Part shown: piece after piece, positions 23,025 to 31,705 of the stretch | Numbering within the stretch: the first letter of the stretch is position 1 | Layout: each line of letters begins with the position of its first letter | Origin: Mycolicibacterium smegmatis | Lineage (GTDB): Bacteria > Actinomycetota > Actinomycetes > Mycobacteriales > Mycobacteriaceae | Length of the DNA: 32,000 nt | Assembly (NCBI RefSeq): GCF_001457595.1 | Contig: NZ_LN831039.1 | Coordinates: 4,590,001-4,622,000, forward strand | Direction: 5' to 3' | Position numbers and translations under genes: made by a program | The notes under the pieces: generated by a model | Databases searched by the model: none | Told to the model about the DNA's origin: nothing | The model's input: the letters and a program-made list of their open reading frames with translations, nothing else

Positions 23025-24197
23025 TCAGGCCAGCAGTGCGCGCACCACACCGTCGGCCAGTAACCTCCCACGGTCGGTCAGCACCACGCGCTCACCCGCG
23101 GTGTCGAGCAGGCCCTCCGCGACGATCTCGGGCACCCGCGCGCGCTCGTCGGCCGCGAGGTCGTCCAACGCCAGACCGCGCCGCAACCGCAACCGCAACA
23201 TCACGTCCTCGGTGTGCCGGTCGGCCGCGTCGAGCACCTCGAAATCGGCGATGGGCAGCGCGCCTTCGGCAAGGGTCTGTGCATATGCGTTGGGGTGCTT
23301 GGCGTTCCACCACCGTGTCGCGTTGAGGAAGCCATGCGCACCGGGACCTGCGCCCCACCATTCTCCGCCGTCCCAGTAGCCGAGGTTGTGCAGGCACTCA
23401 CCGCCGGGTCTGCTCCAGTTCGACACCTCGTACCACGCGAAACCAGCGGCCGACAGCTGCGCGTCGAGCAGTTCGTAGCGGTGCGCGAGCACGTCGTCGT
23501 CGGGTGCGGCGATCTCGCCCCGGCGAACACGCCGCGCCAGCGCGGTCCCGTCCTCGACCACCAGCGCGTAGCCGGACACGTGGTCCACGCCCGCGTGCAC
23601 GGCCGCATCGACCGAGCGAAGCAGATCGTCGTCGGACTCCCCCGGCGTGCCGTAGATGAGGTCGAGGTTGACGTGCTCGAAGCCCGCGGCCTTGGCCTCG
23701 GCCACCGCGGCCGGCGCGCGCCCCGGCGAGTGCGTGCGGTTGAGCACCGCCAGCACATGCGGCGCCACCGACTGCATGCCGAGCGAGATGCGGGTGTAGC
23801 CCGCGTTGCGCAGCGCCGCGAACAGCTCGGGTGACGTCGACTCGGGGTTCGCTTCTGTGGTGACCTCGGCGCCGGTGGCCAGCACGAAGTTGTCGCGCAC
23901 CGCGTCGAGCACCGCGCTCAGGCCGTCCCCGCCCAACAACGAGGGCGTACCGCCGCCGACGAACACCGTCTGCACCGCCAGCGCACCCACCCGCTCAGCG
24001 GCCAGGCGCAGTTCGACGCGCAACGCCTCCAGCCAGCCCTCGGGGTTGGCGCCGCCGAGCTCGGACGGTGTGTAGGTGTTGAAGTCGCAGTACCCGCAGC
24101 GTGTCGCGCAGAACGGGACATGGATGTAGATGCCGAAGGGCCGGCCCGGTGTGGGGGCCAGATCGGGCTGGCCGAGGGGCGCGGTCCGGGTGGTCAT
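23025..24197 (-). CDS. hemW: Radical SAM heme chaperone HemW (HemN-like, oxygen-independent coproporphyrinogen oxidase family)
   Basis: Track ORF 23025..24239. The radical SAM motif is HVPFCATRCGYCDFNTY (CxxxCxxC), and the HemN C-terminal domain is present. ATG 24197 (MTTRTAPLG...) is preferred; GTG 24239 is possible. Confidence 0.88.
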   Translation of the reverse strand: MTTRTAPLGQPDLAPTPGRPFGIYIHVPFCATRCGYCDFNTYTPSELGGANPEGWLEALRVELRLAAERVGALAVQTVFVGGGTPSLLGGDGLSAVLDAVRDNFVLATGAEVTTEANPESTSPELFAALRNAGYTRISLGMQSVAPHVLAVLNRTHSPGRAPAAVAEAKAAGFEHVNLDLIYGTPGESDDDLLRSVDAAVHAGVDHVSGYALVVEDGTALARRVRRGEIAAPDDDVLAHRYELLDAQLSAAGFAWYEVSNWSRPGGECLHNLGYWDGGEWWGAGPGAHGFLNATRWWNAKHPNAYAQTLAEGALPIADFEVLDAADRHTEDVMLRLRLRRGLALDDLAADERARVPEIVAEGLLDTAGERVVLTDRGRLLADGVVRALLA

Positions 24198-24283
24198 CTC
24201 TTGATTTTCCCAGACTGTCCAGCGGAGACTTTTGCTCACCCTGAGCGCAAATCTGGGCCGGTTAGGGCCGGTGGGCGCATACG

Positions 24284-24292
24284 TGGCAGAAT
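24284..24292 (+). promoter_or_regulatory. Candidate extended -10 (TGgCAGAAT) for a leaderless transcript starting at about 24299
   Basis: The hexamer CAGAAT is preceded by TGn and ends 6 nt before GTG 24299. That spacing is expected if the start codon is the transcription start. Confidence 0.35.
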
Positions 24293-24298
24293 GGGCGC

Positions 24299-24394
24299 GT
24301 GACTTCCGCCCGCAACAGCATCACCGGCGTATCGCTGGTGGCCCGGCGGCATGTCGACTTCAAGCGTGTTTGTAGCTGTTGCTGTCTGCCTTGA
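24299..24394 (+). CDS. Polycysteine leader peptide (31 aa) upstream of sirA-cysH-che1; candidate cysteine-responsive attenuator uORF
   Basis: Below the track size cut-off; hand translation gives GTG..TGA = VTSARNSITGVSLVARRHVDFKRVCSCCCLP. Codons 25-29 are TGT AGC TGT TGC TGT. The stop lies 124 nt upstream of the sirA start. Confidence 0.6.
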   Translation: MTSARNSITGVSLVARRHVDFKRVCSCCCLP

Positions 24395-24493
24395 TCCTGC
24401 GTTGATTTCGGAACCTAGCCCACCCAGAATTTTCAGCTGGCCCGGATCTGCGCCGCCGGACAGCCACCGGTGATCAGCGCGATCCGTACGCCG

Positions 24494-24511
24494 GCTCCTT
24501 CACGAAGGAGC
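24494..24511 (+). promoter_or_regulatory. Hairpin sequestering the sirA Shine-Dalgarno
   Basis: GCTCCTT-CACG-AAGGAGC forms a perfect 7-bp stem with a tetraloop. The 3' arm is the AAGGAG SD, 8 nt upstream of GTG 24519. Confidence 0.5.
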
Positions 24512-24518
24512 ATCCACA

Positions 24519-26228
24519 GTGACATCTTCCGAGGCACCAGCCAAAACGGCTGAGAAGCCCGCACCCAAGACACGGCCTGCCAAGCGCCCCCGCGGCGAGG
24601 GCCAGTGGGCACTCGGTTACCGCGAGCCGCTCAACGCCAACGAGCAGGCCAAGAAGGACGACAACCCGCTCAACGTGCGGGCGCGCATCGAGAACATCTA
24701 CGCCAAGAACGGCTTCGAGAGCATCGACAAGGGCGACCTGCGCGGCCGGTTCCGCTGGTGGGGCCTGTACACGCAGCGCAAGCCCGGGTACGACGGCACC
24801 TGGACCGGTGACGAGAACACCGACATGCTCGAAGACGAGTACTTCATGCTGCGCGTGCGCTGCGATGGTGGCGCGCTGACCACTGCAGCGCTGCGCACGC
24901 TCGGCGGCATCTCGACCGAGTTCGCGCGCGACACCGCCGACATCTCCGACCGCGAGAACGTCCAGTACCACTGGATCCAGGTCGAGAACATGCCCGAGAT
25001 CTGGAAGCGCCTCGACGCCGTCGGCCTGCAGACCACCGAGGCGTGCGGCGACTGCCCGCGTGTGGTCCTCGGCTCGCCGCTGGCCGGTGAGTCCCTCGAC
25101 GAGGTGATCGACGGGACCCCCGCGATCGACGAGATCGTGCGCCGCTACATCGGCAAGCCCGAGTACTCGAACCTGCCGCGCAAGTTCAAGACCGCGATCT
25201 CGGGGCTTCAGGACGTGGTCCACGAGGTCAACGACGTCGCGTTCATCGGCGTCAACCACCCCGAGCACGGCCCGGGCTTCGACCTGTGGGTCGGTGGCGG
25301 CCTGTCGACCAACCCGATGCTGGCCCAGCGCGTCGGGGTGTGGGTGCCGCTCGACGAGGTGCCCGACGTCTGGGAGGGCGTCGTCAGCATCTTCCGCGAC
25401 TACGGTTACCGGCGTCTGCGGTCGAAGGCGCGGCTGAAGTTCCTGATCAAGGACTGGGGCGTCGAAAAGTTCAGGGAAGTGCTGGAAACCGAGTACCTCA
25501 AGCGCCCCCTGATCGACGGCCCGGCACCCGAACCGGTGACCCGCCCCATCGACCACGTCGGTGTGCAGAAGCTCAAGAACGGCCTCAACGCCGTGGGCGT
25601 CGCCCCGATCGCGGGTCGCGTCTCGGGCACGATCCTGACCAAGGTGGCCGATCTCGCCGAGGCGGCCGGGTCCGACCGGATCCGCTTCACGCCGTACCAG
25701 AAGCTGATCATCCTCGACGTGCCCGACGACAAGATCGACGAACTGCGCGCTGGCCTCGACGCGCTCGGCCTGCCGTCGACGCCGTCGCACTGGCGCCGCA
25801 ACCTCATGGCGTGCACGGGTATCGAGTTCTGCAAGCTGAGCTTCGCCGAGACCCGTAAGCGGGCCCAGGTGCTGGTTCCCGAGCTGGAGAAGCGGCTCGA
25901 CGACATCAACGCCCAGCTCGACGTGCCCATCACGGTCAACATCAACGGCTGCCCCAACTCGTGCGCGCGTATCCAGGTCGCCGATATCGGGTTCAAGGGC
26001 CAGATGGTCGACGATGGCAACGGCCCCGAGGAGGGTTTCCAGGTGCATCTGGGCGGCAGCCTGGGCCTGGACAGCGGGTTCGGCCGCAAGCTGCGCCAGC
26101 ACAAGGTGCTCTCGTCCGAGCTCGGCGACTACATCGAGCGCGTCGTGCGCAACTTCGTGAAACAACGCGAGGACGGCGAGCGTTTCGCCCAGTGGGCCGT
26201 GCGGGCCGACGAAGCGGATTTGAGGTAG
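24519..26228 (+). CDS. sirA: Ferredoxin-dependent sulfite reductase (siroheme/4Fe-4S), SirA/NirA
   Basis: Track ORF of 569 aa. It has a duplicated nitrite/sulfite reductase fold with cluster and siroheme Cys motifs (ACTGIEFCKL, NGCPNSCAR). Its position next to cysH matches M. tuberculosis Rv2391-Rv2392. Confidence 0.9.
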   Translation: MTSSEAPAKTAEKPAPKTRPAKRPRGEGQWALGYREPLNANEQAKKDDNPLNVRARIENIYAKNGFESIDKGDLRGRFRWWGLYTQRKPGYDGTWTGDENTDMLEDEYFMLRVRCDGGALTTAALRTLGGISTEFARDTADISDRENVQYHWIQVENMPEIWKRLDAVGLQTTEACGDCPRVVLGSPLAGESLDEVIDGTPAIDEIVRRYIGKPEYSNLPRKFKTAISGLQDVVHEVNDVAFIGVNHPEHGPGFDLWVGGGLSTNPMLAQRVGVWVPLDEVPDVWEGVVSIFRDYGYRRLRSKARLKFLIKDWGVEKFREVLETEYLKRPLIDGPAPEPVTRPIDHVGVQKLKNGLNAVGVAPIAGRVSGTILTKVADLAEAAGSDRIRFTPYQKLIILDVPDDKIDELRAGLDALGLPSTPSHWRRNLMACTGIEFCKLSFAETRKRAQVLVPELEKRLDDINAQLDVPITVNINGCPNSCARIQVADIGFKGQMVDDGNGPEEGFQVHLGGSLGLDSGFGRKLRQHKVLSSELGDYIERVVRNFVKQREDGERFAQWAVRADEADLR

Positions 26229-26233
26229 GCAAC

Positions 26234-26944
26234 GTGACCGACGTGACGACGTCAACGGAGAACGAACTGCGCGAACTCGCCGAGCGCGGCGCGGCCGAGC
26301 TCGCGGACGCGAGCGCCGAGGAGCTGCTGCGCTGGACCGACGAGCACTTCGGCGGCAACTACGTGGTGGCATCGAACATGCAGGACGCGGTGCTCGTCGA
26401 GATGGCCGCCAAGGTGCGTCCCGGCGTGGACGTGCTGTTCCTCGACACCGGATACCACTTCGCCGAGACCATCGGCACGCGTGATGCCGTCGAGGCGGTC
26501 TACGACGTGCACGTGGTCAACGTGACCCCCGAGCGCACGGTCGCCGAGCAGGACGAACTGCTGGGCAAGGATCTGTTCGCGCGTGACCCCGGTGAGTGCT
26601 GCCGGCTGCGCAAGGTGGTGCCGTTGACCAACGCGCTCAAGGGTTATTCGGCGTGGGTCACCGGCATCCGCCGGGTCGAGGCGCCCACCCGGGCCAACGC
26701 CCCGTTGATCAGCTGGGACAACGCGTTCGGCCTGGTGAAGATCAACCCGATCGCGGCGTGGACCGACGAGGACATGCAGAACTACATCGACGCCAACGGC
26801 ATCCTGGTCAATCCCCTTGTCTACGAAGGTTATCCGTCGATCGGCTGCGCGCCCTGCACCAGTAAGCCGATTCCCGGGGCCGATCCGCGCAGTGGCCGCT
26901 GGGCCGGGCTGTCCAAGACCGAATGCGGGCTGCACGTCTCGTGA
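26234..26944 (+). CDS. cysH: Adenosine 5'-phosphosulfate (APS)/PAPS reductase, Fe-S type
   Basis: In-frame part of track ORF 25961..26944. GTG 26234 has a GAGG SD 8 nt upstream. Motifs: LFLDTGYHF, the CC pair in CCRLRKV, CAPC and the C-terminal ECGLH. Confidence 0.9.
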   Translation: MTDVTTSTENELRELAERGAAELADASAEELLRWTDEHFGGNYVVASNMQDAVLVEMAAKVRPGVDVLFLDTGYHFAETIGTRDAVEAVYDVHVVNVTPERTVAEQDELLGKDLFARDPGECCRLRKVVPLTNALKGYSAWVTGIRRVEAPTRANAPLISWDNAFGLVKINPIAAWTDEDMQNYIDANGILVNPLVYEGYPSIGCAPCTSKPIPGADPRSGRWAGLSKTECGLHVS

Positions 26945-27654
26945 CGCTCGTCCTGACCGCACACGGCAGCGCGGATCCGCGTTCGTCGGCCAATGCCCAC
27001 GCTATCGCCGGGCATGTGCGGCGCCTGTTGCCCGACACCGAGGTCCGTGTCGCGTTCTGTGAGCAGAACGAACCGAATCTCGCCGACGTCCTCACGGCTG
27101 TCGAAGCCGGTTCCGTGGTGGTGCCCCTGCTGCTCGCCAGCGCCTACCACGCACGCATCGACATCCCGGCGCTGATCGCGCAGACCGGTGCCGACGTGGT
27201 GCAGGCCGATGTGCTCGGGAACGATCCGCGCCTCCTGCAGGTGATGCGGGAACGCCTCACCGCCCTTGGTGTTTCACGCTTCGATTCGTCTCTCGGCGTG
27301 GTGCTCACCGGCGTCGGGTCCTCACACGCCGCGGCCAACGCGCGCACCGCGGAACTCGCCGCCGATCTGGCCGAGGGCACCCGGTGGGTCGGCACGCACG
27401 TCGCGTTCGCGACCGGGCAGGATCCGTCCGTGAGCCGGGCCGTCGAGCGGTTGCGCGCCCGGGGAGCGACGCGACTGGTGATCGCGCCGTGGTTCCTGGC
27501 GCACGGCCGCATCACCGACCGCGTCGCCGAATATGCCCGCCGCGAAGGCATTCCGATGGCCGAACCGCTCGGCCCGCACCGCCTCGTCGCCGCCACGGTG
27601 CTCGACCGCTACGAAGAGGCGATCGAGGCCCGCACCGCCGGTTTCGCCGCCTAG
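26941..27654 (+). CDS. che1: Sirohydrochlorin ferrochelatase (CbiX/SirB-type)
   Basis: Track ORF 26923..27654. GTG 26941 (VTLVLTAHGSADPR...) overlaps the cysH stop (GTGA); ATG 26923 is an alternative. The two-lobed CbiX pattern has VPLLLASAYH in one half and LVIAPWFLAHG in the other. Position after cysH matches Rv2393. Confidence 0.8.
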   Translation: MTLVLTAHGSADPRSSANAHAIAGHVRRLLPDTEVRVAFCEQNEPNLADVLTAVEAGSVVVPLLLASAYHARIDIPALIAQTGADVVQADVLGNDPRLLQVMRERLTALGVSRFDSSLGVVLTGVGSSHAAANARTAELAADLAEGTRWVGTHVAFATGQDPSVSRAVERLRARGATRLVIAPWFLAHGRITDRVAEYARREGIPMAEPLGPHRLVAATVLDRYEEAIEARTAGFAA

Positions 27655-29598: not shown

Positions 29599-30452
29599 CC
29601 CTCGAGCTCCTCACGTTTGGCGGCGCGCGCGCCCACGGCGCGCAGCACGAACAGCACCGCGAACGAGATCACCAGCAGCACAATCGAGATCGCCGCGGCA
29701 CCGGTGCGGTCGTCGTTCTCGATGAGGGTGCGGATCCACTGCGACGACACCTCGGTCTTGCCGGGCACCGCGCCGCCGATCAGCACGACGGAGCCGAATT
29801 CGCCGATGGCGCGCGAGAACGCCAGGCCCGCGCCCGACAACAGGGCGGGCAGCAGGGCAGGCAGGATCACGCGCAGGAAGATGGTGCGGTTGCCGGCGCC
29901 CAGGGACGCCGCGGCCTCCTCGACCTCGCGGTCGAGTTCGAGCAGCACGGGTTGCACCGAGCGCACCACGAACGGCAGCGTCACGAACAGCAGCGCGATG
30001 CCGACGCCCCATTTGGTGTGCTGCAGGTGCAGGTCCACCGGGCTGGCCGGGCCGTACAGGGCCAGCATCACGAGGCTGGCCACGATGGTCGGAAGCGCGA
30101 ACGGCAGATCGATCACCGAGTCGACGATGCGCTTGCCGGGGAACTCGTCACGGGTCAGCACCCACGCGACCAGCAGGCCGAACACCGCGTTCACGACCGT
30201 CACGCCCGCGGAGATCGTCAGCGTGACCTGGAAGCTGTCGACCGCCGCGTTGGAGGTCACGGCGCGCCAGAACGCGTCCCAGCCACCACCGGCGGCCTGC
30301 CAAAGGATCGCGGCCAGCGGCAGCAGCACGATCACGCTCAACCAGATCGACGCCGCGCCCACGCGCAGCGAGGTACTGCCGTAGCGTCCACGGGCCGCGC
30401 GGGGAGCGGGTGCTCCCGGCGCGGCCGTCGACGCCTCGGCGGGTGCGGTCAT
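29595..30452 (-). CDS. cysT: Sulfate ABC transporter permease CysT
   Basis: Track ORF 29595..30551. ATG 30452 (MTAPAEAST...) overlaps the subI stop (ATGA) and removes an Arg-rich 33-aa extension. The permease loop is EEAAASLGAGNRTIFLRVILPALLPAL. Confidence 0.88.
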   Translation of the reverse strand: MTAPAEASTAAPGAPAPRAARGRYGSTSLRVGAASIWLSVIVLLPLAAILWQAAGGGWDAFWRAVTSNAAVDSFQVTLTISAGVTVVNAVFGLLVAWVLTRDEFPGKRIVDSVIDLPFALPTIVASLVMLALYGPASPVDLHLQHTKWGVGIALLFVTLPFVVRSVQPVLLELDREVEEAAASLGAGNRTIFLRVILPALLPALLSGAGLAFSRAIGEFGSVVLIGGAVPGKTEVSSQWIRTLIENDDRTGAAAISIVLLVISFAVLFVLRAVGARAAKREELEG

Positions 30453-31615: not shown

Positions 31616-31705
31616 TCAGCGACAACAGTGCGCGTCAGCGACGACGCAGAAGCCGGCAGCAGGAAGCACCACGACGTGGCTCCCCATCGCACCGGCGGAA
31701 TGCAT
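31616..31705 (-). CDS. Candidate leaderless Cys-containing leader peptide (29 aa) upstream of subI-cysTWA
   Basis: Hand translation gives MHSAGAMGSHVVVLPAAGFCVVADAHCCR, with TGT TGT at codons 27-28. A TANNNT -10 (TATTCT, 31718-31713) ends exactly 7 nt upstream of ATG 31705. The stop lies 117 nt upstream of the subI GTG. Confidence 0.4.
   Translation of the reverse strand: MHSAGAMGSHVVVLPAAGFCVVADAHCCR

Follow-up and report, generated by a model that had tools for sequence, protein, structure and literature searches.

The conserved leader of the leaderless polycysteine sORF Ms4527A upstream of sirA in Mycolicibacterium smegmatis

Leaderless small open reading frames (sORFs) with C-terminal cysteine codons have been described upstream of sulfur metabolism genes in M. 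smegmatis, where they form the Cys ribulon (Canestrari et al. 2020, Mol Microbiol 114:93; bioRxiv 10.1101/834739). Unmasking of a ribosome-binding site was demonstrated in that work for Ms5788A only, as was the response test based on Cys-codon recoding and frameshifts, and the choice between transcriptional and translational control was left open for the other loci. One of these loci is a leaderless sORF at position 4614209 (+) in Table S1, named Ms4527A in Fig S4C, and the gene 3' of it is MSMEG_4527, the orthologue of Rv2391. Transcription of Ms4527A was found to start at the GTG, with RNA-seq and Ribo-seq signal, and the Ms4527 (SirA) protein was detected when cysteine was absent but lay below detection when it was supplied (bioRxiv 10.1101/834739). 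The same authors reported the sORF in most of the 41 mycobacterial species that they tabulated and regarded Ms4528 as probably misannotated. The M. tuberculosis orthologue is now annotated as Rv2391A, a Cys-response attenuator, on which ribosomes stall at Cys codons upon cleavage of tRNA-Cys, and later papers treat the set of Cys ribulon sORFs as established.

This analysis revealed that a sORF at positions 24299-24394 (+) of a 32,000-nt stretch of the M. smegmatis genome, hereafter the window, is already known: it is Ms4527A, and we have rediscovered it, with no new element involved. The published coordinate 4614209 corresponds to window position 24299 (M. smegmatis mc2 155 coordinate = window position + 4,589,910). 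A second Table S1 sORF mapped onto the window, Ms4533A (4621615, -), gives the identical offset of 4,589,910, so that the published leaderless start is exactly window 24299. The peptide given in Table S1 is VTSARNSITG(V)SLVARRHVD(F)KRVCSCCCLP, in which the bracketed letters, dropped in the reading of the PDF, have been restored. A previous sequence-only reading of this DNA had named Canestrari et al. 2020 as describing the same architecture; the paper in fact lists exactly this ORF. Its remark that the ORF is usually unannotated was partly right, since the ORF is called in some NCBI records, at its full 31 aa or in an 18-aa form. The 18-aa call, found in some NCBI M. smegmatis assemblies, starts at an internal in-frame GTG at 24338 (24338-24394, +), and the Val codon at this position is GTG in 74 of the 81 loci compared below.

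The sORF comprises 31 codons and a stop, beginning GTG ACT TCC and ending TGT AGC TGT TGC TGT CTG CCT TGA, and encodes VTSARNSITGVSLVARRHVDFKRVCSCCCLP, which finishes with C-S-C-C-C-L-P. Its boundaries follow from the translation, from the Table S1 coordinate and from its recurrence in 80 of 80 related loci, and agree with the 31-codon ORF opening at GTG 24299 that had been proposed from the sequence. As had also been proposed, Cys occupies four of the five consecutive codons at 24371-24385 (+; TGT AGC TGT TGC TGT), a tract seen in the sequence and in the 81 loci which is presumed to sense the supply of Cys-tRNA. Three of these four Cys codons are TGT, and the claim that this codon is disfavoured is borne out by the neighbouring genes hemW, sirA, cysH and che1, in which TGC was counted 16 times and TGT once. 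Taken alone, the Cys run is only mildly improbable, and composition by itself is no proof of significance: six-frame translation of the window contains two occurrences of at least four Cys in five codons, and dinucleotide shuffles contain 0.16 such runs per window, with at least one in 15% of the shuffles. The second run, CCSCC at 29642-29656 (-), is out of frame with the sulfate-transporter permease gene and was dismissed as chance. For 24299-24394 itself, a chance ORF is ruled out by conservation and by the codon-position pattern described below.

The extended -10-like site reported 6 nt before the GTG was found as TGGCAGAAT (TGn + CAGAAT) at 24284-24292 (+). It is conserved across the 81 loci as CGTGGCA[C/G]AAT, the hexamer ending 5-7 nt 5' of the start codon in nearly all of them and 4 nt in two. 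The leaderless start that had been predicted on this basis coincides with the published transcription start site, 4614209 or window 24299, and the conserved spacing of the extended -10 fits it. A generic two-hexamer sigma-70 scan of 24100-24600 gave no promoter match because no -35 was matched; such a scan requires a -35, is blind to extended -10 promoters, and does not count against the promoter. In the intergenic region between the sORF and the upstream, divergent hemW (23025-24197, -), there are an imperfect palindrome, TTTGCTCACCCTGAGCGCAAA, at 24232-24252 and a motif, CCGGTTAGGGCC, at 24258-24269. Both lie 30-67 nt 5' of the sORF start and, among the few related loci inspected, seem to be conserved in most; they could represent an operator, or else the divergent hemW promoter or 5' UTR.

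Downstream, sirA (MSMEG_4527, GTG start; 24519-26228), cysH (26234-26944) and che1 (26923-27654) lie on the same strand (+) as the sORF, with sirA beginning 124 nt past the sORF stop. SirA, a ferredoxin-dependent sulfite reductase of the NCBIfam NirA family, matches PDB 1ZJ8, the NirA/SirA of M. tuberculosis (E = 0, 1081 bits). CysH, an APS/PAPS reductase of 236 aa, was assigned by NCBIfam and PF01507 (PAPS_reduct), and Che1, a CbiX-type sirohydrochlorin chelatase, by PF01903; these matches uphold the description of sirA-cysH-che1 as sulfide-making genes. The che1 start overlaps the cysH end by 22 nt (26923-26944). The mechanical ORF list stretches cysH back to 25961, within sirA, and gene callers start it at 26234. 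The locus shows these features of a Cys ribulon member: a leaderless start, at least two consecutive C-terminal Cys codons and a same-strand sulfur operon downstream. The other published sORF in the window, Ms4533A, was placed at 31616-31705 (-) from its Table S1 coordinate and encodes MHSAGAMGSHVVVLPAAGFCVVADAHCCR, both of its Cys codons being TGT. A -10-like hexamer, TATTCT, precedes its ATG by 7 nt, and the sulfate-transporter operon subI-cysTWA lies downstream.

For the comparison, a SirA scan with one genome per species supplied 80 Mycolicibacterium loci from fast growers, M. smegmatis itself being absent from this set; counts over 81 refer to these 80 fetched loci together with the window sequence. 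Among the matches listed, the SirA protein search returned only Mycolicibacterium, at 89-94% identity. Alignment of the hemW-sirA intergenic regions, which the sequence-only reading had suggested as a check, revealed a sORF with a Cys tract in the same place in 80 of 80 loci. In each, a GTG or ATG start lies 13-15 codons 5' of an LVxRRHVDFKRVC block, which is followed by the Cys tract and a stop. Consecutive Cys codons occur in 76 of the 81 sequences, whereas the tract is interrupted in five (CTCRC, CSCTC, CTSAC); the commonest forms are CTCCC(LP) and CSCCC(LP). TGT outnumbers TGC by 249 to 72 among the Cys codons of the tract, and it is found at the second Cys in 76 of 81 loci and at the fourth in 73 of 73. 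This distribution indicates that TGT is strongly selected within the tract.

The peptide block L-V-A-R-R-H-V-D-F-K-R-V (24335-24370, +) is near-invariant: all 81 loci carry L, V, R, D and R unchanged, and more than 92% of them retain R, H, V, F and K. Entropy within the block is 0.30, 0.12 and 0.94 at the first, second and third codon positions, so variation falls mostly on the third position, which indicates a translated sequence with purifying selection on the peptide. Together with the strong TGT bias, the block suggests that selection acts on something beyond the simple presence of Cys codons. An RRxVDxxRV motif is common to Ms4527A (RRHVDFKRV, 24344-24370) and Ms5788A (VSTRLELSLTKRRAVDLCRVAGCCCCCCCC), in both cases just 5' of the Cys tract, and both peptides begin V-[ST]-[ST]; the ribulon sORFs 0113A, 0932A, 5280A and 4533A do not carry the motif. 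The shared motif suggests a common origin or a shared role of the nascent peptide.

With regard to the leader RNA, the sirA Shine-Dalgarno (SD) sequence AAGGAGC (24505-24511, +) is predicted to pair, as the 3' arm of a 7-bp local hairpin with a CACG loop, with GCUCCUU (24494-24500), at -10.2 kcal/mol in the window. A local SD hairpin is predicted for every one of the 81 leaders, its energy ranging from -7 to -15 kcal/mol; loops and stem extensions vary, and several UA/CG exchanges occur among its pairs. It was analysed sequence by sequence because MAFFT misaligns its loops. The Cys tract takes no part in this SD-sequestering structure.

Between the sORF and the SD hairpin, three short conserved elements surround a long hairpin. 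The first is the C-rich motif GCCCACC(CAG) (24418-24427, +), detected in the alignment, which can pair with CAGCUGG. This helix (alignment columns 148-154:168-173) displays an A-U to G-C compensatory change at one pair in five sequences, and just 4 bp of it are possible in the window sequence. The second, CAGCUGGC (24434-24441, +), has two possible partners, 24418-27 or GCCGGCU at 24490-96. With the latter it forms a closing helix, AGCUGGC (24435-41):GCCGGCU (24490-96), for which about 96-97.8% of alignment cells are paired (columns 168-175:238-244). This helix would enclose the central hairpin (24444-24485, +), which consists of GGAUCUGCGCCGCCGG, an ACAGCCA loop and CCGGUGAUCAGCGCGAUCC in the centroid structure of the window leader and has 94-97% of cells paired over the 81 loci. 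Almost no covariation is seen in the central hairpin or the closing helix because the sequence barely varies. Applied to the whole leader, RNAalifold retained two helices only, AGCUGG:CCGGCU and the inner part of the central-hairpin stem, with no compensatory pairs. The third element, GCCGGCUCCUU (24490-24500, +), is predicted from folding to pair with 24435-41 through its 5' part, and the anti-SD is its 3' part, GCUCCUU (24494-24500). GCU/GGCU is common to the closing helix and the SD hairpin, and the full helix is mutually exclusive with that hairpin. The two are nearly isoenergetic, with a mean ddG of +2.1 kcal/mol and a value of -2.2 kcal/mol in the window.

A competing arrangement, which we call Fold II, was identified from pair probabilities. 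In this fold, the 3' half of the sORF and the first bases after its stop (24364-24405, +) are the antiparallel complement of 24447-24480. The helices concerned are GCGCG:CGCGC, GCUG paired with CAGC of the loop, and CGUAGA:UCUGCG, and GCCCACC pairs with CAGCUGG in the same fold. Average base-pair probabilities for Fold II range from 0.2 to 0.45 over the 81 leaders, and 88.6% of its cells are paired, compared with 27-38% in slid controls. The duplex between the sORF 3' half and the central hairpin scores a mean z of -2.3 against shuffles (-1.6 in the window). In contrast, complementarity between the sORF 3' region and the ribosome-binding region is not above that of shuffles (mean z +0.33 in 21 sampled leaders). 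The whole leader folds no better than shuffles (z = -0.86). No meaningful Rfam family was returned for the leader at gathering or permissive thresholds. A search of 24100-24600 gave zero terminator-like sites, and the hairpins of the leader have no U runs following them.

The influence of a ribosome was modelled by masking. A footprint placed on the Cys tract reduced the energy needed to open the ribosome-binding site from about 9.5 to 8.9-9.0 kcal/mol, a drop of 0.5-0.7, and masking of the whole sORF reduced it to 7.9 kcal/mol, a drop of 1.7. For the window sequence, the tract footprint made no change (7.93 to 7.91), and the probability of the SD being unpaired barely shifts upon masking in equilibrium folding. 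These effects are in the right direction, and they are too small to prove or exclude unmasking.

Given its published record, its conservation and its position, Ms4527A is best explained as a leaderless cis-acting sensor of cysteine supply for sirA-cysH-che1 and a member of the Cys ribulon, a reading to which we assign a probability of about 0.85. Transcription would begin at the G of GTG 24299, driven by the extended -10, and 70S ribosomes would initiate directly on the 5' end of the transcript. When Cys-tRNA is ample, the ribosome would pass through C-S-C-C-C to the stop and leave. With the sORF free of ribosomes, the sirA SD would stay locked in the 24494-24500:24505-24511 hairpin, and SirA would barely be made. 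When Cys-tRNA is scarce, the ribosome would stall on the Cys codons, probably with further ribosomes queued behind it. By occupying the 3' half of the sORF it would alter the fold of the leader, thereby opening the SD hairpin and allowing translation of sirA. Promoter regulation could account for part of the rise in Ms4527 protein under low cysteine. The sequence-only reading had expected a stall to unmask the ribosome-binding site. A hairpin hiding the SD is indeed predicted in all 81 leaders; nevertheless, folding did not reproduce a direct duplex between the Cys tract and the SD.

Given a local SD hairpin, and a sORF whose complementarity is to the central hairpin and not to the ribosome-binding site, a relay is suggested in place of a direct duplex. 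We propose this route from the stalled ribosome to the SD tentatively, as a folding model whose chances we place well short of even. In the OFF state, the free 3' half of the sORF (24364-24405) would pair with 24447-24480 and block the central hairpin, and the anti-SD would pair with the SD. In the ON state, the stalled ribosome would prevent that pairing, which would allow the central hairpin to form and be closed by AGCUGGC:GCCGGCU. The closing helix would take part of the anti-SD away from the SD and thereby weaken the SD hairpin.

Four other explanations may be set against these proposals. The locus might work exactly as Ms5788A, where the Cys codons pair with the ribosome-binding site and a stalled ribosome breaks a duplex that was proven by compensatory mutagenesis. 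A candidate duplex is present: UGUUGCUGU (24377-85) is fully complementary, with G-U pairs counted, to ACAGUGACA (24516-24), which holds the sirA GUG start, and the minimum-free-energy fold of the window leader uses this pairing. However, it is not conserved, with just a 4-bp core, GUUG:UGAC, being kept among the loci. The third Cys codon (TGC/TGT) does not covary with the ATG/GTG start of sirA, and the complementarity of the two regions does not exceed that of shuffles, as given above. Moreover, masking of the tract leaves the SD sequestered in its local hairpin, and we consider the same arrangement at sirA unlikely. The proposed pairing could explain TGT at the fourth Cys codon, though not at the second; the TGT preference might instead stem from slow wobble decoding. 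It is also conceivable that the sORF controls transcription, through Rho- or hairpin-dependent premature termination, and not the initiation of sirA translation. Transcriptional attenuation was left open for Ms4527A by Canestrari et al. (bioRxiv 10.1101/834739), and a conserved stretch rich in C and poor in G (GCCCACC...; GC skew near -0.2) lies in the untranslated 124 nt that follow the stop. A ribosome at 24371-85, given a typical footprint size, would reach only about 24398-24400; the C-rich 24418-27 lies outside this footprint and would therefore be naked in both the stalled and the free state. The absence of a terminator-like hairpin with a U tract in 24100-24600 also speaks against this explanation, and the SD hairpin predicted for all 81 leaders argues for control at initiation, which makes termination quite improbable as the output.

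Protection of the mRNA 5' end from RNases by a stalled ribosome is a known effect at ermC and ermA. A stalled ribosome on Ms4527A could likewise mainly stabilise the mRNA by shielding its 5' end, with no refolding of the leader. The small size of the equilibrium refolding effects is in keeping with this, and so is the position that a ribosome would take, right at the 5' terminus of the leaderless transcript. Stabilisation would, however, leave the conserved alternative helices and the SD hairpin unexplained, and we judge it very unlikely to be the main effect. The least probable of these explanations is that the 31-aa Cys-rich peptide is conserved for a function of its own, such as metal or redox binding, and that the regulation of sirA is incidental. 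Purifying selection on LVxRRHVDFKRVC does exceed the needs of a bare Cys-codon sensor. On the other hand, the related literature holds that such peptides are probably unstable leader peptides, and a cis-regulatory role agrees with the position of the sORF, with its leaderless start and with the SD hairpin. An action of the conserved block within the exit tunnel of the ribosome is conceivable, and the peptide and cis roles are not exclusive.

Ms4527A, read as a cis-acting sensor, links cysteine supply, with no protein regulator involved, to the expression of SirA, CysH and the siroheme chelatase, and the sulfite-reduction pathway matters for redox defence and persistence in mycobacteria; both points have already been published. 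The residual interest of the locus lies in its RNA mechanism, in the conserved peptide block and in the selected TGT codons. Being conserved in the genus, with an apparent local SD hairpin and competing long-range helices, it would make a good second model for how stalling on a polycysteine sORF is transmitted.

In comparison with known systems, the element is the same as Ms4527A/Rv2391A of Canestrari et al. (2020), from which it shows no difference in peptide, coordinate or downstream gene. Ms5788A, which lies upstream of Ms5788 and controls Ms5789 (cysA2) and Ms5790, likewise has a leaderless GTG start, about 30 codons, a C-terminal Cys tract preceded by RRxVDxxRV, and sulfur metabolism genes downstream. 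It differs in having eight consecutive Cys codons up to the stop, where Ms4527A has C-S-C-C-C-L-P-stop. Furthermore, its Cys codons pair directly with the SD region, according to the compensatory mutants, whereas the sirA SD downstream of Ms4527A is predicted to lie in a local hairpin.

The enterobacterial trpL and hisL leaders also consist of a short uORF rich in codons for the end product, on which stalling reports the level of charged tRNA. They act through an intrinsic terminator and antiterminator; in Ms4527A, by contrast, no intrinsic terminator with a U tract is detectable between the sORF and sirA, translation starts without a leader, and it is SD accessibility that appears to be the output. 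Closer in output are the ermCL and cat leaders, a comparison already made by Canestrari et al., in which a stalled ribosome likewise remodels SD-sequestering hairpins. Their stall depends on an antibiotic and the nascent peptide, unlike the aminoacyl-tRNA shortage presumed for Ms4527A. Arrest peptides such as TnaC, SecM and ErmCL require a specific conserved nascent peptide, and LVxRRHVDFKRVC in Ms4527A is conserved with synonymous variation. It may be, although we find this somewhat doubtful as a whole, that a relay here takes the place of the Ms5788A-type duplex and that RRHVDFKRV and the TGT codons tune the stall, which would make Ms4527A a hybrid between a hungry-codon sensor and an arrest peptide.
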